Shown here: one piece after another, positions 6,596-35,877 of the stretch
Position numbering within the stretch: the stretch's first letter is position 1
Layout: each line of letters starts with the position of its first letter
The notes under the pieces: model-generated
The model's database searches: none
What the model was told of the DNA's origin: nothing
The model's input: the letters and a program-made list of their open reading frames with translations, nothing else
Made by a program: the position numbers and the translations under genes
Assembly: GCA_963823335.1 (NCBI GenBank)
Contig: CAWGLD010000001.1
Span: forward strand, 1,056,001 to 1,120,000
Source: an uncultured delta proteobacterium
GTDB taxonomy: Bacteria; Desulfobacterota; Desulfobacteria; Desulfobacterales; B30-G6
DNA length: 64,000 nt
Direction: 5' to 3'

Positions 6596-7417
6596 ATGTG
6601 TATGCTTTCACATTTTTTCATGGTTCTGATTCTTGCCGCTTCAATGATCTTTTTTCCAAACACATTGACGACTGCCCATGCTGATGACCCTAAAGCACGT
6701 GAGATAATGGAAAAAGTAGATGCGCGGGAGGATGGAGACAATCAGACAGCGGACATGGAGATGGTCTTGATAGATAAAGGAGGGAAGGAGCGCTTCCGTG
6801 TGATCAGAACCTTCAGCAAAGATATGAATGAAGACACTTTTCGGCTGATGTTTTTTAGTTCGCCCGCGGATGTCAAACACACCGGATTTTTGACCTATGA
6901 TTATGATGACCCCGAAAGAGATGATGAACAGTGGCTTTACCTGCCCGCTCTGAAAAAAACAAAGCGAATAGCATCGAGCGATAAGAGCGGATCTTTCATG
7001 GGTTCGGATTTAAACTATTCCGACATGACGTCAAGGAATCTCGAGGATTATAATTTTACAATGAAAGATGAACTGGATGTCAATGGTCATCCTGCCTGGC
7101 TCATTGAATCTATTCCCCGAACAAAAAAAGTGGTTAAGGAAACGGGTTATTCCAAATCACTTCTTTTTATACGCCAGGACAATTTTTATGTTATTCGGGC
7201 GATTCACTGGGTCGACGATGGTGGATATTTAAAATATGTGGACGTTAAGAGTCTGGAACAGATCGATGGCATCTGGATTGGTACTGAAATGCATGTTTTC
7301 AAGAAAAAGGGCAAATCGGTCGTTCACAGAACAGAATTAAGATGGAAAAACATCCAATTCAACCAAAACTTAGAGGAGGAACTGTTTACAATTCGACGAC
7401 TTGAAAAAGGTCTTTAA
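6596..7417 (+). CDS. Outer-membrane lipoprotein-sorting (LolA-like) protein
   Basis: Signal peptide; FSSPADVKHTGFL, QWLYLPALKKTKRI, SFMGSDLNYSD motifs; RBS AGGAGG before ATG 6596. Confidence 0.85.
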   Translation: MCMLSHFFMVLILAASMIFFPNTLTTAHADDPKAREIMEKVDAREDGDNQTADMEMVLIDKGGKERFRVIRTFSKDMNEDTFRLMFFSSPADVKHTGFLTYDYDDPERDDEQWLYLPALKKTKRIASSDKSGSFMGSDLNYSDMTSRNLEDYNFTMKDELDVNGHPAWLIESIPRTKKVVKETGYSKSLLFIRQDNFYVIRAIHWVDDGGYLKYVDVKSLEQIDGIWIGTEMHVFKKKGKSVVHRTELRWKNIQFNQNLEEELFTIRRLEKGL

Positions 7418-22803: not shown

Positions 22804-23748
22804 TCAGGGTTCCATGTGGCGGAGGGCTATCACTCGATCACCTCCCTGGCGTTTGGCCTCATACATGGCCACATCGGCCCGTTTAATAAAGGATTCGGTG
22901 GTTTCATTCTCTTCCAGCTGGGCCACACCGGCACTGAGTGTTACCGGCCTAAGATCCATGTCTTTATAGGTGATATCATATGGCCAATGTGCATTGAGAC
23001 TTGTCCTGATTTTTTCACCGGTTTGTTTTGCATTCTGTAATGAAGCTTCAGGCAGAAGAACGAAAAACTCGTCGCCGCCATATCGATATGCCGTATCAGA
23101 TTTTCGGACAATATCCAAAAGCAGTTTTCCAACGATTCGTAGAATGTTATCTCCTTCCAGGTGTCCCAACTGGTCGTTACAGTCCTTGAAATGATCCAGG
23201 TCAAAACAAATGAGGCTCAATGGGCGCTTGTACCTCATGGAACGTCCTATTTCTTTTGAAAGGGTAGAATAAAAATAGCGTTGATTGTAAAGACGGGTTA
23301 ACCCATCGGTTATGGAGAGTTGACGCAGCTTTTTTTCAACCTCTTTTTGGGGGCTCAAGTCATGAAAAAAGCCCACGCTGCCGATTTCTTCATTGTTATT
23401 GTAGATTAAGGCAGCGGAAAGACGTATGGGAACTTTCTTTCCGGCCTGTGTTTTAATCTCAATGCCATAGCCTTCTAGATATCCTTTGTCTCCGTACATG
23501 TCGGAATAGAGATGCCTTTTTATTTCTCTGGCAATCTCTGAAGAAGGATAAATCTCAATGATGTTTTTTTTGCCGATGGTTTTCCCGGCACTGTGACCGG
23601 TCAAAACTTCCGCGGCCCGGTTGAAAATGGTGATCAATCCGGAACGATTGATGGCAATAACGCCATCCGGACACAGAGCCACAAGGTTGACAAGAAATTC
23701 TTTTTCGTTTGATTGAATGTGTTGTAGGGAAACGATTTCCTCGCGCAT
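22804..23748 (-). CDS. PAS-GGDEF diguanylate cyclase
   Basis: PAS (DGVIAIN...FNRAAE); TDGLTRLYNQR, DLDHFK, RKSD I-site and intact GGDEF; GGAGG RBS before ATG 23748. Confidence 0.92.
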   Translation of the reverse strand: MREEIVSLQHIQSNEKEFLVNLVALCPDGVIAINRSGLITIFNRAAEVLTGHSAGKTIGKKNIIEIYPSSEIAREIKRHLYSDMYGDKGYLEGYGIEIKTQAGKKVPIRLSAALIYNNNEEIGSVGFFHDLSPQKEVEKKLRQLSITDGLTRLYNQRYFYSTLSKEIGRSMRYKRPLSLICFDLDHFKDCNDQLGHLEGDNILRIVGKLLLDIVRKSDTAYRYGGDEFFVLLPEASLQNAKQTGEKIRTSLNAHWPYDITYKDMDLRPVTLSAGVAQLEENETTESFIKRADVAMYEAKRQGGDRVIALRHMEP

Positions 23749-23775
23749 TCGACACCTCCATGTCAACAGATCAAA

Positions 23776-25005
23776 TCATTCAGAAAGATACTTATTCAGT
23801 TCTTCCTTGGGTATTCCCAGGCAGTAGAGCACATTTAGAAGCTGGTCATTGCTGAGCACGCCATCGGTCATGATACTCGGATTTTCAGGTTTCAACGCAA
23901 TAGAAAGGCCAACATTCTCAATGAAATGGGATGATTTAGAGCCATCTCCCACCGCAATGACCTGTTCCCTGCGGATGTTTTCATTCTGCATAATAAACTC
24001 GAGCAATTCTTCCTTGGTGTCGTTGGTAATAATGGGCTGCTCCAGGTTTCCAGTGAATACGCCGTTTTCGTCTATCTCAAGGGTATTTGAAAAAGCATAA
24101 TCCACGCCGGCGGTCTCAAAGATTCTTTTTATGAAAAAGTTGAATCCGGATGACAACAGGGCGATTTTAAAGCCCATGGATTTCAATATCTTGATAAGTT
24201 CAAAAGTTCCAGGATTCAACTGAAGGATATCAACATATTTTTTAAGATCATCGGCAGATAATCCTTTCAGTCTTTTGGCATTGTAAACCAGCGCTTCCAT
24301 CTGGCCGGCAATTATCTCTCCCGGCCTGGAAACATCGGTTTCCGGTCGCATTCTTCCATTGATTGTCTTAATAAATTTTTTGAGGGAAACCCGTTGTACC
24401 AGACTGGATTCAACATCAAATACGACCAGTTTCTTACTTCTTTGATAAATATTTCCACTTTGAATTACCACACTCTGATCTATTTCAGTACATAGTTTTT
24501 TCAGGTCGGATTTCATCTTCTTGATGCAGGCATCATGGGACATTTCAGGGGTGTCATTCATTGTGCTGGTATCGATGATCACCTCCATGGAAAAGAAAGC
24601 ACCCCGGGCGATCATTCGGCACTTTTCAATGGCAATTCGATAGCTGTGAAACAGGCTCGATACCTTGGCGATAATACCCGGTTGATCAACACCGATGATG
24701 GTTACAAGATGGCTTTCGTGTTGGGATGGCAAAAAGGATGTCTTGTCATCATAGCGGTCGAGAATGATTTTGATACCGGTCTTTTCCTGGATCGCTTTCA
24801 ACCTTGAAATGATATGCGCTATGGTGTGTTTTGATGACGAGAAATCAATCACAAGAAAAATAGAAAACAGACCTCGTCTGCAATTCTCTTCAACATCTAC
24901 GATGTTGCCGTCCATTTCGAATATGGTATTCGTAATTAACGCAAACAAGCCGGGCGTATAGGGTCCAACGGCAGATACGCTGATCAGTTTTTGTTTTGTT
25001 TTCAT
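23776..25005 (-). CDS. ACT-ACT-HAD SerB-like protein with degenerate catalytic motifs
   Basis: Two ACT domains (GPYTPGL, GVDQPGI) plus a PSP-like HAD domain; motif I FDVESSL and motif IV GDGSKSS differ from DxDST/GDGAND. Confidence 0.8.
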   Translation of the reverse strand: MKTKQKLISVSAVGPYTPGLFALITNTIFEMDGNIVDVEENCRRGLFSIFLVIDFSSSKHTIAHIISRLKAIQEKTGIKIILDRYDDKTSFLPSQHESHLVTIIGVDQPGIIAKVSSLFHSYRIAIEKCRMIARGAFFSMEVIIDTSTMNDTPEMSHDACIKKMKSDLKKLCTEIDQSVVIQSGNIYQRSKKLVVFDVESSLVQRVSLKKFIKTINGRMRPETDVSRPGEIIAGQMEALVYNAKRLKGLSADDLKKYVDILQLNPGTFELIKILKSMGFKIALLSSGFNFFIKRIFETAGVDYAFSNTLEIDENGVFTGNLEQPIITNDTKEELLEFIMQNENIRREQVIAVGDGSKSSHFIENVGLSIALKPENPSIMTDGVLSNDQLLNVLYCLGIPKEELNKYLSE

Positions 25006-25895
25006 TGAGAACCCTTTTGTTTTGAGCTGAAAAAAACGAACAGCTCTTCTTCATAGTAGCGGCCATCGATAATCTGACCAGGTCCGAACCGCCGCATCTG
25101 TTTTGCCTGCAAGAACCTTTCGAATCGTTGGTTGATTTCTTTCAGAGAAATGTTCTCATTAAGCCAATACCCTGGGAAATTGACATTAAGAGGTCTGGCA
25201 GGAATTACGTGACGGGTTGTTTTGGGTGCAAATATTTTTCTTTTCTTTGCGGAGGCGATGACGATTTTTTTGGTCAGTATAGGTGTCCAAACGACGGCTT
25301 GGTTGGCATTCAATTTCTGGCAAAACTGTTCTGTGTGAACCGCAGTGCAAGGAATATAGTCCAGGGATATCTGCATGGATATCAATTGTTGCTGAATTTG
25401 ATGCAGCAGATCGAATGTCGCCACCGCATCCCGCGATAAGCACTTCGGGAATTCTATAAAAATGCAGTCATCTGTCCGTTGAATGCCGCACGCATCCGTG
25501 TTGGCCTCCAGGGCCTCCATCAGTGATGATTTGTTTGGAACTGGATGGAGACGGCATCCTAATGATTCAAAGGTATTTCTAATGATATCGAAATTTGAAA
25601 TGTGCCCGAGCAGCCTGAACCAGCGTCGCAATTTTGTGTTGTCATTCAGGTAGTCTATTTTACAAACAGGAATATATCTTAAGTTCAAGGCATTGAAAAC
25701 ATAGGTCCGGTGGTTTCCATCCAGGACCACATGATTTTCATCGACAATGATCGGGTTTTGAAGATGTGCGAGGTTCTTAAACTCATAGGTAAGCTTAACG
25801 GCTTTTTGCGGAAGGATCCGTTCATGTTGCAACAGTGTTTTAACCGGCACAACTTCCAGTTCCAATCTTAATGTGTTTGTTTTGATACAATACAT
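25002..25895 (-). CDS. serK: SerK/SbnI-family free serine kinase (ParB/Srx fold)
   Basis: QHER, VLDGNHR, IDY...RRWF, IFAPKTTRHVIP and C-terminal RYYEEELFVF; match recalled Thermococcus SerK (PHEQ, DGHHR, FSPKTTRHVLP) and the SbnI C-terminus. Confidence 0.7.
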   Translation of the reverse strand: MYCIKTNTLRLELEVVPVKTLLQHERILPQKAVKLTYEFKNLAHLQNPIIVDENHVVLDGNHRTYVFNALNLRYIPVCKIDYLNDNTKLRRWFRLLGHISNFDIIRNTFESLGCRLHPVPNKSSLMEALEANTDACGIQRTDDCIFIEFPKCLSRDAVATFDLLHQIQQQLISMQISLDYIPCTAVHTEQFCQKLNANQAVVWTPILTKKIVIASAKKRKIFAPKTTRHVIPARPLNVNFPGYWLNENISLKEINQRFERFLQAKQMRRFGPGQIIDGRYYEEELFVFFSSKQKGSQ

Positions 25896-26092
25896 TTTTT
25901 AAGAAAGACCTTGATTCTGTCCGGGTCTGTAATGGCAGATAGATCCATACGTAACAGCACAAGTATACCAGGCTGCTATCGGAGAGAAATGGATGCATTT
26001 TGCCGGTAAGCGGCAATGTTGCCTCAAATAGCATCGCAAAGGAGTTTATTGAATCATCGCCGATGATGTCAAATAGAAATTATCTGGGCGGG

Positions 26093-27376
26093 CTAGGCGG
26101 CCCTGCTAGTATGCTTTGCAGGCCTCATCGTGTCAGGCTCAAAGTTCAAAGTGGCAAAATAATCTTCGACATGTTCTTCCCTTCGAATCAACGCGACGGT
26201 TCCGTCTGCGCAAAGCAGGAGCTCTTTTGGTCGCAACCGTCCGTTGTAGTTGAATCCCATGGAGTAGCCATGTGCCCCGGTATCGTGTATACAAAGAATA
26301 TCTCCTGCATCGATATCCGGAAGACGTCGCTGAATGGCGAACTTGTCGTTGTTTTCACAAAGGGACCCCACCACATCGACCTTTTTATCGTTTTCAGTTG
26401 CACGTTTTCCGAGAATATCGATGTGGTGATAGGCGCCGTATATGGCAGGACGCATGAGGGATGACATGGAAGCGTCCACACCGATATAGGTGCGATAAAT
26501 ATCCTTTCGGTTTATGGCACTTGTCACCAGCACACCGTGAGGTCCGGTAATGTAGCGACCGCTTTCCATATAGAGTCTGGGAACATATCCGTTTCTGTCT
26601 TTGAACGAAATAAAAAGCGTTGTAATAGCTGCGGCCATCTCTTTCAGATTCAAAGGCGTTTCCGACGGGTGATAGGGTATTCCGAGGCCGCCCCCCATGT
26701 TGACAAATTCAAATCGTTGGCCAAGAGCGCCTGACAGTGTTTCCACGGTTTCCAACAGCATCTGAACCGTATGGATCATGTAGTCATGGTTCAATTCGTT
26801 GGATGCCAGCATGGTATGAATTCCCAGTTTTTTAGCGCCCCTTTGAATGGCCATCTGATATGCCTGGCATAACTGGGTGGAACTGACCCCATATTTGGAC
26901 TCGAGTGGATCACCGATGATGTTGTTCCCGGTTCTTTTTGCTCCGGGATTGTATCGGAAACTGATCCGCTCCGGCATCTGTGGTACCTTGGAGACCAGAG
27001 AAATATCGTCGAGATTCAAGATGCATCCACCACCGGATGCCGCCTTTTCAAACTCTGTGGTACTGGTGTTGTTGGATGTAAACATGATATCTTCCCCACG
27101 CGACCCGATCTTGCGGCTAAGCAACAGTTCAGGAACGGAACTGCAGTCGAAACCGAACCCAAGATCTTTTAATATCCTGAGTATGCGCGGGTTGGGTAGC
27201 GCCTTTACAGCATAATATTCCCGGAATAGATCAATTTCCGAAAATGCAGCTATCAGGTCTGTGCCTGTTTCCTGGATGCCCTTTGCGTCATACAGGTGGA
27301 AGGGGGTGCCAAAGTGGTTTACAATATCTTTCAGCAAGGGGAAAAGCCGGTTTTTGAATGATGCCGACATGGGCAT
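26093..27376 (-). CDS. lysA: Diaminopimelate decarboxylase
   Basis: YAVKALPN (PLP Lys), FDCSS, NMGGGLG, ESGRYI, GSLCENND, GAHGYSMG. Confidence 0.92.
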   Translation of the reverse strand: MPMSASFKNRLFPLLKDIVNHFGTPFHLYDAKGIQETGTDLIAAFSEIDLFREYYAVKALPNPRILRILKDLGFGFDCSSVPELLLSRKIGSRGEDIMFTSNNTSTTEFEKAASGGGCILNLDDISLVSKVPQMPERISFRYNPGAKRTGNNIIGDPLESKYGVSSTQLCQAYQMAIQRGAKKLGIHTMLASNELNHDYMIHTVQMLLETVETLSGALGQRFEFVNMGGGLGIPYHPSETPLNLKEMAAAITTLFISFKDRNGYVPRLYMESGRYITGPHGVLVTSAINRKDIYRTYIGVDASMSSLMRPAIYGAYHHIDILGKRATENDKKVDVVGSLCENNDKFAIQRRLPDIDAGDILCIHDTGAHGYSMGFNYNGRLRPKELLLCADGTVALIRREEHVEDYFATLNFEPDTMRPAKHTSRAA

Positions 27377-27466: not shown

Positions 27467-28690
27467 CTAAAACAGGGCTGATTTAATGCGATCCATGGCA
27501 ATGGCCACATTTTCATAATTGTTAAAGGCACTGATTCTGACAAAGCCCTCACCACACAGCCCAAAACCTGCTCCAGGGGTGCAGACGACACCGGCTTTAT
27601 CCAGAAGCAGATCAAAGAATTCCCATGATTTTCGCTGACAGTCGACCCAGATATAAGGAGAATTGACACCTCCGATACAGATAAACCCCATTTTTGTTAT
27701 TTCTTTTAATATCAGTGCAGCGTTCTGCAGGTAATAATCAATCAATATACGGGTTTGTTGCCTTCCTTCAGGACTGTAGACAGCCTCGGCAGCTTTTTGG
27801 ACCGGATACGAGACACTGTTGAACTTTGTTGTGTGCCTGCGATTCCACAGATCGTTCAGCGAACAGGATTCACCGCTCTCGGTATAGGCGGTGCAGTCTT
27901 TGGGCACCACGGTATAAGCGCAACGGGTACCGGTAAATCCAGCTGTTTTAGAAAAGCTCCTGAACTCAATGGCAACTTGCCGGGCACCTTCGATTTCAAA
28001 TATCGATCTGGGGAGGGTGTCGTCCCGGATAAACGCCTCATAAGCGGCATCGTATAATATCAAAGCACGATGGTCTCTTGCATACGCGACCCATTCACGT
28101 AATTGCTCTTTGGTAATCACGGCACCCGTTGGGTTGTTTGGGTAACATAGGTATATCAAGTCCACTGATGTTGACGGCAGCCGGGGCACAAACCCGTTTT
28201 CCTGACGACATTCCAGATAGGTGATGCCTTCATACCTGCCTTCATGATAAGGCCCGGTACGGCCCGCCATAACATTGGTGTCTACATAAACGGGATATAC
28301 GGGATCCGGGATCGCCACCGTGATATTTTGGGAGAAAATTTCTTGAATGTTACCGGTGTCACATTTGGCACCGTCACTGATAAAGATTTCGTTGGCCTGG
28401 ATATCGGCACCATATTTCTGAAAGTCCTCTTTGGCAATGATTTCCCGTAAGAACGGATACCCCTGTTCAGGACCATATCCTCGAAATGTATGGTCGTGTG
28501 CCATTTCATCGACAGCCAGGTGAAGGGCCTGAATACAGGCTTTTGGCAATGCCCGGGTCACATCGCCGATTCCCAGTTTGATAATTTCTTTGGTCGGGTT
28601 TTCCGCTTGGTGCTGATTTACCCGCCTGGCTATTTCGGCAAATAAGTAAGATGATTGCAGTTTTTGGTAGTTTTCGTTGATTCGGATCAT
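27467..28690 (-). CDS. dapL: LL-diaminopimelate aminotransferase
   Basis: [46 protein letters not shown]. Confidence 0.95.
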
Positions 28691-28805: not shown

Positions 28806-29273
28806 TTAGGCGATATCATGGGTGTCTATCGGAATTCGTGCTGTTTCTTTGAAGGTAGACATGACAATGGCGGTATGGGTCTTTTTTACATCTGCTATCC
28901 TGAGAATTTTATCCTGGATAAGTTTGCCCAGTTCCGCGACATCGGAAACACGGACCTTCACTAAAAAACCGTCTTCCCCCGTAATATGGTGAACCTCCTG
29001 AATTTCAGGAATCGCTGTGAGCCGCTTGCCTGTCAGGGCCACACTCTCGCGGGAACTTGTGACGACGGTAATAAACGCAACCAGATTTCGTTTGAATTTT
29101 TCAGGGTTCAGGCGGACTTCATACCCATCGATAAACCCTTTTTGTTCAAGCTTACGGATTCGTTCCAATACTGCAGACGGTGCCATATCGACCTGTCTTG
29201 CAACTTCTACGTTCGGAATTCTGGCCTTTGTTTGTAATATCTTCAGTATTTTTAAACTTATTTCGTCTAACAT
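28806..29273 (-). CDS. Lrp/AsnC family transcriptional regulator
   Basis: LDEISLKILKILQ..ARI..EVARQV..VLERIRKLE..G HTH plus RAM domain (HITGED). Confidence 0.92.
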   Translation of the reverse strand: MLDEISLKILKILQTKARIPNVEVARQVDMAPSAVLERIRKLEQKGFIDGYEVRLNPEKFKRNLVAFITVVTSSRESVALTGKRLTAIPEIQEVHHITGEDGFLVKVRVSDVAELGKLIQDKILRIADVKKTHTAIVMSTFKETARIPIDTHDIA

Positions 29274-30341: not shown

Positions 30342-31814
30342 ATGGACTCGTTCGATACGGCTATTCATTTTCCCCACCTTCGAGTTTTATCGGATGATCA
30401 ACTTCGCAATATCTATCGGGCAACATTGAGCTGTCTGCAGCGAACAGGTGTTGAGGTTCACAACCAGGAAGCAAGAGAGCTTCTATACGATGCCGGTGCG
30501 GACATCGATGATCATCGCGTTCGTATCCCCTCTCATGTTATTGAAACCATTCTGAACGATGTGCCTAAAACGTTTACGATCTATGGTCAAAATCAAAAAT
30601 GGGATATGTTGATTGAATCAGGTCAGGTCAGATATGGAACAGGGCCGACCTGTACCTATTTCATGGATCCAGAAACCGGAAAAAAACACAAGACCCAAAA
30701 AAGCGACCCGGCCCTTACTGCTCTGGTTTGTGGTGCATTGGAAAATATAGATTATGTAATGTCCCTTGGACTGATAGACAATGTCACATCCACTTTGGCC
30801 TCTGTCCACGAGTTTGCCCAAATGATCACCCACACAGGCAAGCCGATTCTTGGCTGGGCTTTCAAGAAAGACCATCTCGAGGACATTTATAAAATTGCTT
30901 CCGCCGTTTCAGGAAGCGAAGAGGCTTTTCAGCTGCGACCCAATTTCGGCTTCTTTTCTACCTGGCAGGCACCTCTGGCGCATATGGATGAGGATCTGAG
31001 CAACTGTCTGTGGGCCCTGGAGAGGAATATTCCGATCATATATATCGGTGGCGGAGTGGCGGGGTTAACTGCGCCGGTAACTGGCGCCGGTCTCCTGGTT
31101 TCCAACCTTGCCAGCATGCTCAGCGGCATGGCCATATTTCAACTGAAGAAACCGGGGGCGCCCGTTTGCCTGGGCGCAGTTCCAGCACCCATGGATCTTC
31201 GTACCGCACGGATGGCCTATGGCGGACCCGAAATGAGTCTGTACTCTGCAGCGCTTTCAGAGATCACGCAATTTCTAAATATTCCCTTTATGGGGACTGC
31301 CGGCGCATCAGAATCCAAGGTAATGGATCTTCAGGCTGCCATCGAAAGCACTTTTCAAGTGGTACTGTCGCAGATGAGCAAAGCCAATATGGTACATGAT
31401 GTTGGCTTTCTCGACTGTGCCGATATTGGTTCACTTGAAATGCTGGTGATGACCGATGAGATCATTTCCCAGGCAAAACGGATTACCAGGGGTATAGAGG
31501 TTAGCGAGGAAACCTTGATGCTTGATCTCATCGATGAGGTAGGGACCAAAGGCAGTTTTATTGCAACCCCGCAAACGGCCAGGCGATGCCGGGAGGAAAT
31601 TTATACATCCGACCTGATGGATCGAAATGCATGGGCAACCTGGCAGGAAAGCGGTGCCAAAACCATGCTGGAGCGGGTACAAGAGAAACTTGCTGACATT
31701 CTATCCCAGCCTCCTTCAATTCAACTGTCTAGTGACGTCCTCGATCGTATATCGGGGATAATCCAGGCGGCTGAACAAAGAGAAGGTATTTTTCTTTTTG
31801 AAAACACAGGGTAA
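30342..31814 (+). CDS. Non-pyrrolysine MttB-family (trimethylamine methyltransferase superfamily) corrinoid methyltransferase
   Basis: LSDDQLRNIY..L...GV, TAPVTGAG, YGGPE, GTAGASESK, HDVGFLD, SLEMLVMTDE; no in-frame TAG. Confidence 0.9.
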   Translation: MDSFDTAIHFPHLRVLSDDQLRNIYRATLSCLQRTGVEVHNQEARELLYDAGADIDDHRVRIPSHVIETILNDVPKTFTIYGQNQKWDMLIESGQVRYGTGPTCTYFMDPETGKKHKTQKSDPALTALVCGALENIDYVMSLGLIDNVTSTLASVHEFAQMITHTGKPILGWAFKKDHLEDIYKIASAVSGSEEAFQLRPNFGFFSTWQAPLAHMDEDLSNCLWALERNIPIIYIGGGVAGLTAPVTGAGLLVSNLASMLSGMAIFQLKKPGAPVCLGAVPAPMDLRTARMAYGGPEMSLYSAALSEITQFLNIPFMGTAGASESKVMDLQAAIESTFQVVLSQMSKANMVHDVGFLDCADIGSLEMLVMTDEIISQAKRITRGIEVSEETLMLDLIDEVGTKGSFIATPQTARRCREEIYTSDLMDRNAWATWQESGAKTMLERVQEKLADILSQPPSIQLSSDVLDRISGIIQAAEQREGIFLFENTG

Positions 31815-35241: not shown

Positions 35242-35877
35242 ATGAACGATCTGTATGAAAAAATGGCCCAGGAGTTGATTACAGGAAATGTAGTGGAGGT
35301 CAAGAAGCTGACCCAGGAAGCCTTGGACAAGGGGGCTAATCCAAAGGAAGTGCTCGACAAAGGATTGTTGGCAGGTATGGAAGTTGTGGGTAAACGTTTC
35401 AAGGCTGGGGATATGTTTATTCCGGAAGTGCTGCTCTGCGCCAGAACCATGCATGCCGCCATGGATATTCTCAAGCCCCTTCTGTCGGATGCCGATGCAG
35501 CCGGGGCAGGTACCGTTGTTATCGGAACAGTAGAAGGAGACTTGCATGATATTGGAAAAAATCTGGTGGCGATGATGCTCCAGGGGGCAGGCTTCAAGGT
35601 CATCGATCTGGGTGTCAATATCAAGCCTCAGGGATTTGTCGATGCCGTCAAAGAACACAAACCCAATATCCTCGGCATGTCAGCACTTTTGACGACCACC
35701 ATGCCCAAGATGGCGGAAACCATCACGGCGCTCAAGGAAGCCGGTATTCGCGACCAGGTAAAAATCATGGCGGGTGGTGCACCTGTAACCCAGGATTTTA
35801 TCGAAAAAATCGGCGCGGATGCCTATGGTGCAAACGCTGCGTCCGCATCTGAAAACGCCAAAGCACTTATTGCCTGA
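35242..35877 (+). CDS. Methyltransferase cognate corrinoid protein (MttC/MtgC-like)
   Basis: Cap domain GMEVVG..F...FIPE; EGDLHDIGKN (DxHxxG); SALLTTT; GGAPV. Confidence 0.92.
   Translation: MNDLYEKMAQELITGNVVEVKKLTQEALDKGANPKEVLDKGLLAGMEVVGKRFKAGDMFIPEVLLCARTMHAAMDILKPLLSDADAAGAGTVVIGTVEGDLHDIGKNLVAMMLQGAGFKVIDLGVNIKPQGFVDAVKEHKPNILGMSALLTTTMPKMAETITALKEAGIRDQVKIMAGGAPVTQDFIEKIGADAYGANAASASENAKALIA

Follow-up and report, generated by a model that had tools for sequence, protein, structure and literature searches.

How are a putative serine kinase, a relative of phosphoserine phosphatase and a diguanylate cyclase connected if their genes follow each other on the same strand? This question is raised by a locus of an uncultured delta proteobacterium of the Desulfobacterales (GenBank assembly GCA_963823335.1), which lies within a stretch of 64,000 nucleotides (contig CAWGLD010000001.1, positions 1,056,001 to 1,120,000; termed the window in the following). 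Here, the gene for a homolog of the kinases SerK and SbnI is followed by a gene for a paralog of the phosphoserine phosphatase SerB (the SerB-like protein) and by a gene for a PAS-GGDEF diguanylate cyclase. A preliminary description of the locus had interpreted the three genes as a module sensing serine or phosphoserine, with the kinase acting on serine, the SerB-like protein as sensor and the cyclase as output via cyclic di-GMP (c-di-GMP). Comparison with related loci shows that the conserved unit consists of the genes for the kinase and the SerB-like protein and that its conserved context is metabolic. We see an even chance that the pair is a module leading from glycine and serine to phosphoserine, and from there to 3-phosphoglycerate (3-PG) and, as phosphate donor, to the phosphotransferase ThrH, and that the SerB paralog is a partner of the kinase without hydrolytic activity.

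Seventy related loci, most of them from metagenome-assembled genomes (MAGs) of Desulfobacterales or Desulfobacteraceae, were compared by tblastn with the window proteins. The SerB-like gene is located directly 3' of the kinase gene and on the same strand in 57 of them. The 13 loci without an adjacent partner include four that are cut by contig ends (L039, L072, L074, L077) and three that encode distant kinase homologs with 25-29% identity (L073, L075, L076). At the genome level the kinase is found in 3 of 401 genomes sampled evenly across the phylum and in 15 of 61 related genomes, comprising 9/9 of the own genus, 13/14 of the own family and 1/46 of other families of the order. The SerB-like protein (60-100% identity) is present in exactly the same 15 genomes, and the remaining 46 have neither protein; the SerB matches listed there are 34-35% identical and of the true SerB type. 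The two proteins are furthermore predicted to form a complex, with a score of 0.76 (0.77, 0.74 and 0.76 in the individual runs), the best of three controls reaching 0.01. Of 157 solved complexes, 116 attain the mark used for these scores, as do 2 of 215 mismatched pairs; these counts apply only roughly to this prediction, which used the custom alignments A1 (21 kinase-family sequences) and A2. The runs share at least 71% of their contacts, and the pLDDT of the partner is at least 73. In the predicted interface, the C-terminal tail of the kinase (residues 266-291) is placed against residues 283-308, 322-324 and 337-343 of the HAD domain, where D302, Y303, A304, F305, N307 and P324 of the SerB-like protein are invariant. 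The preliminary description had suggested a gene-neighbourhood search and complex predictions, and for the two proteins both gave positive results. That they are a functional pair is thus upheld by the gene order, by the co-occurrence (15/15 genomes with the kinase against 0/46 without it) and, at the level of a model, by the predicted complex.

Kinases with 43-54% identity to the window protein are also encoded in MAGs assigned to Promethearchaeota (L055) and Bathyarchaeota (L072) and in two loci labelled Pseudomonadota (L019, L040). The SerB-like gene follows in L055, L019 and L040, and the contig of L072 ends before the position of the partner. L055 is found on a long branch among Desulfobacterales rows in the tree. 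These carriers may reflect binning contamination or gene transfer.

The cyclase does not share this conservation. As noted earlier, it appears intact: Pfam detects GGDEF (PF00990) with 147 bits (E 5e-43, cut-off 23.8) and PAS with 45.8 bits (E 7e-12), and the translation contains RKSDTAYRYGGDEF, that is, an intact GGDEF motif with RKSD as RxxD I-site five residues before it, as expected for a diguanylate cyclase. A PAS-GGDEF gene is located behind the pair in only six of the 70 loci, which are six of the 57 with the pair (L008, L009, L011, L012, L014, L015); this arrangement extends to loci with about 60% kinase identity (L014, L015). In a quickly computed tree with SH-aLRT support (65 rows; six loci with matches below 240 residues were not included), the six cyclase-bearing rows form a clade of nine rows with 100% support together with the window, L010 and L013. 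The two latter loci are the nearest neighbours of the window and have no cyclase, nor does L016, and an ACAD gene directly follows the pair there. Since all carriers belong to one clade and the nearest relatives have no cyclase, the gene was acquired once within this genus-level group, and part of the group lost it later. Conservation of the three genes across genomes, on which the module idea had been staked, largely fails, and the trio was rejected as a conserved signalling module with the cyclase as its output. The cyclase gene was inserted after the pair within a single genus, where it is probably no more than a co-transcribed local neighbour.

A second, different GGDEF gene is encoded on the minus strand about 1.1-1.2 kb upstream of the Lrp gene in L008, L011, L012, L013 and L015. 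Its product is 36-41% identical to the GGDEF part of the window cyclase. The window has no counterpart upstream of Lrp, where a Usp gene and then an MttB-family gene are located.

Pfam searches with the kinase-like protein yielded no match, DUF1015 included. With the NCBIfam models, scores below the cut-offs were obtained for SerK (NF053625; E 5.8e-15, 55.1 bits, cut-off 380) and SbnI (NF033589; E 1.9e-5, 24.2 bits, cut-off 350), and the sequence matches in the PDB were SerK and SbnI as well. The best of five AlphaFold models has a pLDDT of 81.5 and a pTM of 0.73; the other four reach only about 50-53. Foldseek searches of the PDB with this model placed SbnI or SerK structures on all ranks from 1 to 9 (E 2.8e-11 to 6.6e-9), with TM values of 0.45-0.62 over 238-279 aligned columns, and thereby recovered the two-domain SerK/SbnI fold; matches to classical ParB proteins span only about 78 columns. 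The protein has a ParB/Srx-like N-terminal domain and ends in a beta-hairpin tail at about residues 266-291. Throughout A1, H24-E25, D59-G60-x-H62-R63 (DGNHR) and K225-x-T227-R228-H229 (PKTTRH) are invariant, and the profile alignment places H24-E25 opposite H29-E30 of SerK, for which E30A and E30Q mutants are named in titles of PDB entries. At the C-terminus, members of the family carry about 55 additional residues, which end in PGQxxDGRYYEEELFVF. The fold and the aligned catalytic Glu confirm the initial identification as a SerK/SbnI-like kinase, and we infer that it would phosphorylate L-serine to O-phosphoserine.

The partner contains two ACT domains and a HAD domain (Pfam, Hydrolase/HAD matches), the latter matching SerB2 of Mycobacterium avium in the PDB over residues 164-403 (E 2.7e-27). 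It scores below the cut-offs of both the serB model TIGR00338 (108.8 bits, cut-off 144.15) and the ThrH model NF010109 (26.8 bits, cut-off 133). A canonical ACT-ACT-SerB with D-C-D-S-T and GDGAND is encoded elsewhere in the genome (C4:426375-427025, 263.6 bits). In the window protein, motif I reads F-D-V-E-S-S instead of the D-x-D-S-T of SerB and motif IV reads GDGSKSS instead of GDGAND. We aligned the 53 full-length SerB-like open reading frames (ORFs) from the 57 loci, leaving out L020, L046, L048 and L070 as truncated or split (Table 1). The HAD core, consisting of the nucleophile Asp, the Ser/Thr of motif II, the Lys of motif III and the first Asp of motif IV, is present; D-x-D-x-T in motif I, the Glu and Arg of the cap and G-D-G-x-N-D in motif IV are not. 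These cap residues bind phosphoserine and presumably correspond to E20 and R56 of the M. jannaschii enzyme. Within the protein, conservation is lowest in the first half of the cap (residues 205-238), where the mean top-residue frequency is 0.36 compared to 0.74-0.78 in the HAD core. In 12 true SerBs of matched divergence (mean pairwise identity 0.546 versus 0.548) the respective values are 0.67 for the cap region and 0.77-0.82 for the core, and all 12 keep D-x-D-S-T, Glu and Arg. Because the cap region is relaxed and the core residues are conserved, the paralog has lost the phosphoserine-binding cap and has kept its phosphate/Mg site under strong constraint. A decaying SerB copy was ruled out, since the altered positions do not vary among the orthologs and conservation of the core is high. 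The earlier view that the SerB copy is catalytically crippled therefore stands in part: motif I, motif IV and Glu/Arg are changed, but Asp197, Ser285, Lys331 and Asp354 are retained. That the protein is not an ordinary phosphoserine phosphatase is supported by the altered motifs in 53/53 orthologs and by the difference in the cap (0.36 versus 0.67).

The upstream context of the pair was investigated by Pfam searches with 60 neighbouring ORFs from 16 loci, followed by tblastn across all 70 loci. In 27 of these, the kinase gene is immediately preceded, on the same strand, by a gene whose product of about 880-916 amino acids is a fusion of a GCV_T domain (about 250 bits in Pfam) with a divergent domain resembling serine hydroxymethyltransferase (SHMT; about 110-120 bits). 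This gene is often preceded by a gene for dihydrolipoyl dehydrogenase (Lpd) and a divergent Lrp-GcvH-GcvP cluster. The fusion (E ≤ 1e-40) is encoded in 34 of the 61 related genomes including all 15 kinase carriers, and the distribution of the pair is nested inside this wider distribution. The genome studied here encodes it at C1:388076-395443 (L084:3076-10443) in the order Lrp–GcvT/SHMT-like–GcvH–GcvPA–GcvPB–LipB, the GcvT part scoring 321 bits (cut-off 300) and the SHMT part 241 bits (cut-off 335); a separate, more typical GlyA-like gene is located at C1:1266010-1267122. No description of the GcvT–SHMT-like fusion was found in the literature searched. Genes of serine metabolism are also found next to the distant kinase homologs. 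In L076, the kinase gene is preceded by genes for a glutamate dehydrogenase, a class-V aminotransferase (SerC-like) and a 2-hydroxyacid dehydrogenase (SerA-like), in this order; in L073, a SerA-like 2-hydroxyacid dehydrogenase gene follows the kinase gene and a SerC-like class-V aminotransferase is encoded nearby; and in L075, a SerA-like 2-hydroxyacid dehydrogenase and SerRS are encoded upstream. These neighbourhoods echo those reported for serK in Desulfurococcales (PMC5120207). What is conserved around the pair is metabolism, namely glycine cleavage and the SHMT-like fusion, and not signalling.

For the steps between phosphoserine and 3-PG, one SerC and two D-3-phosphoglycerate dehydrogenases (SerA/PGDH) score above the cut-offs in the genome, and one of the two PGDHs might work in reverse, on the way from serine to 3-PG. 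Both PGDH genes are full-length (C6:118602-120176 and C7:304992-306554, 641 and 617 bits).

Several other genes were observed around the kinase locus. An MttB-family methyltransferase (PF06253, 254 bits; 30342-31814, plus strand) and a B12-binding corrinoid protein (35242-35877, plus strand) are encoded 1-6 kb beyond the Lrp gene in the window. MttB-family members demethylate quaternary amines such as glycine betaine, and the two genes would fit a glycine-related neighbourhood. A gene for the corrinoid activator RACo precedes the kinase gene in L019. Glutamyl-tRNA synthetase is the convergent downstream neighbour in L026, L042, L052 and L060, with or without the SerB-like gene, and marks the ancestral position of the cluster.

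Phosphoserine has a second potential use in these organisms. In the genome studied here, ThrH is encoded directly downstream of the homoserine dehydrogenase gene hom (C1:1758133-1760116; L004:153-1481 and 1516-2136), with 298 bits against a cut-off of 133. ThrB, HomK and thrB_alt remain below their cut-offs in this genome (20.8, 17.1 and 18.3 bits), which has one shikimate-kinase-type gene. Of the 61 relatives, 54 encode ThrH above the cut-off, none encodes a classical ThrB and two encode HomK; both genomes with HomK belong to the seven in which ThrH is missing. ThrH is reported to use phosphoserine as phosphate donor, with transfer via a phospho-enzyme (PMC1079889). Given the counts for the three families, threonine synthesis in the order seems to rely on ThrH, and with it on phosphoserine as phosphate donor. 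A two-component homoserine kinase, in which the kinase and a ThrH-like HAD protein would replace the missing ThrB, was considered and rejected. The homoserine-kinase gap is already filled because a true ThrH adjoins hom, and ThrB stays below its cut-off in the relatives with or without the pair.

We propose that the core of the locus is a two-gene unit whose ancestral seat is directly behind the GcvT–SHMT-like fusion and the glycine-cleavage genes. For the direction of the flux and the role of the partner we infer the following. Glycine would be converted to serine via glycine cleavage and the SHMT-like domain, serine would be phosphorylated by the SerK-like kinase, and phosphoserine would yield 3-PG by SerC and SerA running backwards. 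ThrH-dependent threonine synthesis would likewise draw its phosphate from phosphoserine, and where serine is derived from glycine and not from 3-PG, the kinase would keep this donor pool filled. The SerB paralog, which has kept both ACT domains, would dock on the kinase without hydrolysing phosphoserine and could tune it according to the amino-acid status. We read it as a non-hydrolytic partner because an active SerB would serve no purpose on the kinase and the genome encodes its canonical SerB at another site; such a partner would spare the futile cycle that is expected with a real SerB.

A number of observations weigh against this proposal. The kinase score is far below the cut-off of the SerK equivalog model (55 versus 380 bits), and its substrate could differ. 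In the genus of the window, the pair has left the glycine-cleavage cluster, which in the genome studied here is located about 690 kb away (C1:388-393 kb), and the pair is found behind Lrp–DapL–LysA. Serine dehydratase-type genes (SDH_alpha) are present in 29 of the 61 relatives, in 13 of the 14 genomes of the kinase-bearing family and in two copies in the genome studied here, so the kinase route would not be the sole exit from serine; a replacement of serine dehydratase by the kinase route was rejected, since the distributions show no complementarity. Six loci of the same kinase family have no partner gene (L032, L042, L052, L060, L061, L062). In the five of these genomes that were searched (all except that of L032) no D-x-E ortholog was found, the best matches being 23-25% identical, and all five encode the fusion and the kinase. 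L042, L052 and L060 nest within partner-bearing clades in the quick tree. It follows that the partner is dispensable and was lost secondarily. The tail of the kinase is equally conserved in the partner-less lineages and is partly recognisable in L073, L075 and L076. A tail that is kept without the partner is no partner-specific adaptation, and its role as a partner-specific docking device is not supported; the predicted interface may reflect a mere sticky edge strand. Nor would Glu at the position Asp+2 prove a loss of catalysis, because D-x-E is also found in ThrH, whose annotation is that of an active phosphatase/phosphotransferase: the ThrH of this genome carries A-D-M-E-G, yet keeps Glu, Arg and GDSYND. 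A literature search on HAD enzymes with D-x-E gave nothing usable; enolase-phosphatase E1 may carry this motif as well, which has no weight in the argument here. Contigs from estuary metatranscriptomes (four libraries, 95-99+% identity) together cover all three genes of the locus, and individual contigs bridge the junctions between kinase and SerB-like gene (X1 record 6, X3 record 22), between SerB-like gene and cyclase gene in two runs (X2 record 11, X3 record 18) and between cyclase and ACAD genes (X1 record 1). These contigs are consistent with co-transcription but do not prove a single transcript, and such libraries can contain DNA. Gaps in the contig cover of the region carry no information.

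Four other explanations were weighed against the proposed module, two of which concern the activity of the SerB-like protein. It could be an active phosphotransferase similar to ThrH, in which Asp197 is phosphorylated by phosphoserine and the phosphate then moves on to another alcohol acceptor. In that case serine would be a catalytic phosphate carrier and the pair a two-step kinase for a further substrate. The Asp+2-to-Glu change is common to the SerB-like protein and the ThrH of this genome (A-D-M-E-G), a complex with the kinase is predicted, and ThrH is reported to move phosphate from phosphoserine through a phospho-enzyme (PMC1079889); the invariance of Glu199 (53/53) and the conservation of the nucleophile Asp, of Ser, of Lys and of the Mg-Asp speak against drift and for a functional phosphoryl site. 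The protein lacks, however, the Glu and Arg kept by SerB and ThrH as well as the second Asp of motif IV, its cap as the expected seat of acceptor specificity is the least conserved part (0.36), the gene context suggests no acceptor, and the homoserine version is unnecessary with ThrH itself present beside hom. We give a phosphotransferase a low but real chance, on account of the invariant Glu and the intact phosphoryl site. A related idea is that the SerB paralog acts as a docked phospho-relay, in which the Asp takes the phosphate from phosphoserine and then either retains it, so that the paralog would sense the phosphoserine pool like a receiver and give feedback to the kinase, or passes it to an acceptor. 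We consider this relay a speculative option with a small but appreciable chance. If true, it would be a relay of a new kind, a small-molecule kinase complexed with a paralog of the opposing phosphatase, and would control the serine/phosphoserine node in anaerobes that need phosphoserine for threonine synthesis via ThrH. We hold it to be quite improbable that the SerB-like protein has remained a phosphoserine phosphatase in which Glu takes over as acid/base, and which works in a regulated substrate cycle or in a branch that makes serine for the glycine/C1 cluster. The residues of the phosphoryl-transfer core are retained, the nearest relatives in the PDB and NCBIfam are SerB proteins, and D-x-E also occurs in ThrH, which is annotated with phosphoserine phosphatase activity; but Glu and Arg are replaced, the cap is relaxed in comparison with 12 true SerBs of equal mean identity (0.55), the score is below the serB cut-off, a canonical SerB is already present in the genome, and coupling a kinase to its own phosphatase would waste ATP.

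The remaining two explanations would change the reading of the locus as a whole. A module made up of all three genes, in which the serine/phosphoserine status controls c-di-GMP via protein contacts between kinase, SerB-like sensor and cyclase, would agree with the close linkage of the cyclase gene to the pair (a 27-nt spacer with GGAGG), with the same arrangement in six related loci down to about 60% kinase identity, with the RNA-library contigs that bridge the SerB-like/cyclase junction in two runs and with the intact GGDEF motif and I-site. Against it stand the 51 of 57 pair loci without a cyclase behind the pair, the loss of the gene in L010, L013 and L016, where ACAD follows directly, and the metabolic nature of the conserved context of the pair, which together leave this module a slim chance. 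Alternatively, the kinase-like protein might be no serine kinase at all and act on another small molecule or as a ParB-type nucleotide-binding switch, in which case the metabolic interpretation would be wrong. The low score on the SerK model (55 bits, cut-off 380), the missing Pfam match and a report of a SerK-like archaeal protein that binds CTP rather than ATP (PMC12704722) point in this direction. With a two-domain fold that matches SerK/SbnI over 240-280 columns (classical ParB only about 78), an invariant catalytic Glu, two invariant substrate motifs and a serine-centred context in close and distant homologs, we judge it to be rather improbable.

The proposed glycine/serine-to-phosphoserine module can be compared with several known systems. 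Free serine kinases are found in a few hyperthermophilic archaea and in staphylococcal siderophore synthesis. The window kinase resembles SerK of Thermococcus kodakarensis (PDB 5X0B) in its two-domain fold (Foldseek E about 1e-9), in the aligned catalytic Glu, in the motifs DG(H/N)HR and PKTTRH common to both proteins and in the proposed flow of serine and glycine towards 3-PG (PMC5120207 and PMC11032457). In contrast to SerK, it is bacterial, about 17% identical to the archaeal enzyme and far below the equivalog cut-off, carries the extra C-terminus of about 55 residues and is tied to a SerB paralog and the GcvT–SHMT-like fusion. In PMC5120207, SerK is described as the start of a route from Ser to 3PG that is usable for glycine assimilation, and clear-cut SerK homologs are said not to be found in bacteria; PMC11032457 proposes the sequence Gly to Ser to 3-PGA via SerK for T. 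kodakarensis. SbnI, the kinase and regulator of staphyloferrin B synthesis in Staphylococcus, provides the best structural matches (5UJE, E 2.8e-11; 6NR6, E 6.7e-10), and its N-terminal ParB-like region aligns with the window kinase, which differs in having no siderophore context, another C-terminal part and another partner. DUF1015 proteins ('SerBK'; GapMind 2026, PMC13759103) are likewise proposed to be SbnI-like serine kinases linking serine synthesis and utilisation, but belong to a different family and are described there as single proteins without a SerB-like partner.

On the side of the partner, SerB2 of M. avium and M. tuberculosis (PDB 3P96, 5IS2) has the same ACT-ACT-HAD architecture and a similar length; the window protein differs from it by D-V-E-S-S instead of D-V-D-S-T, GDGSKSS instead of GDGAND, the replaced Glu and Arg and the relaxed cap. 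ThrH also belongs to the HAD-IB family and shares the Asp+2-to-Glu change in motif I, but has no ACT domains and keeps Glu, Arg and GDSYND. The fold and the route are already known; the bacterial family, the fixed partner and the clustering are a new variation on them. No description of a bacterial pair of SerK-like kinase and SerB paralog, or of its link to the GcvT–SHMT-like fusion, was found in the literature searched, which left most subscription journals outside its coverage, and a 2026 publication that treats the reductive glycine pathway of Desulfobacterota nowhere contains the word 'kinase'.

The finding would extend free serine kinases to relatives of anaerobic sulfate reducers. The position of the kinase behind the glycine-cleavage/SHMT-like fusion points to a possible path from glycine to 3-phosphoglycerate without passage through pyruvate, which bears on how these organisms move carbon out of the glycine node. 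Sources of this glycine could be the reductive glycine pathway or the breakdown of osmolytes that contain glycine. The dependence on ThrH in the order would make the phosphoserine pool doubly important. Pairing a kinase with a dedicated, remodelled paralog of the opposing phosphatase would furthermore be an uncommon regulatory design.

Direct reading of the sequence verified the gene arrangement given in the preliminary description, that is, three co-oriented ORFs on the minus strand, an ATGA overlap between the first two and a distance of 27 nt to the third (Table 1). In the overlap, the stop codon TGA of the kinase gene is located at 25004-25002 and the start codon ATG of the SerB-like gene at 25005-25003, which suggests translational coupling of the two genes. 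The closest loci (L008-L015) have a matching geometry, with the end of the kinase match and the start of the SerB-like match both at 6891. The cyclase ORF as listed (22804-23766, 320 aa) starts with an upstream TTG, but the ATG at 23748 is the likely start codon; a GGAGG ribosome-binding site is located inside the spacer, 6 nt ahead of this ATG.

Table 1. Features of the kinase locus in the window and conservation of key residues in 53 SerB-like orthologs.
Feature	Position	Strand	Basis or conservation
SerK/SbnI-like kinase homolog, 297 aa	25002..25895	minus	ORF listing; profile and structure matches
ACT-ACT-HAD phosphoserine phosphatase paralog, 409 aa	23776..25005	minus	Pfam/NCBIfam/PDB matches
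PAS-GGDEF diguanylate cyclase, 314 aa from ATG at 23748	22804..23748	minus	Pfam
ATGA overlap, kinase stop / SerB-like start	25002..25005	minus	read directly in sequence
27-nt spacer, SerB-like stop codon to cyclase ATG	23749..23775	minus	direct reading
197-nt intergenic region 5' of kinase gene	25896..26092	minus	sequence
LysA	26093-27376	minus	lysA 297.3 bits
DapL	27467-28690	minus	DAPAT_plant 585 bits
Lrp/AsnC regulator	28806-29273	minus	Lrp E 3.9e-32
D197 of the SerB-like protein (nucleophile Asp)			53/53 orthologs
E199 (acid/base Asp position of SerB)			53/53 orthologs
S285			49/53 orthologs; T in the remaining 4
K331			52/53 orthologs
D354 (Mg-Asp, first Asp of motif IV)			51/53 orthologs
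Motif IV			GDGSxxS in orthologs, without the second Asp
Column of the SerB/ThrH Glu			variable (A, S, P, E) in orthologs
Column of the SerB/ThrH Arg			Asn in 41/53 orthologs

Scans of the region for promoters and terminators were uninformative, as the counts were at or below those expected from shuffled sequences. A promoter-like match upstream of the kinase gene (TTGACA-18-TAAACT, 26072-26043) agrees with the consensus only and is not evidence of function, the scan having found 6 sites where 7.7 were expected after shuffling. The order Lrp-DapL-LysA upstream of the kinase gene is also found by tblastn in L008-L015 and L018.

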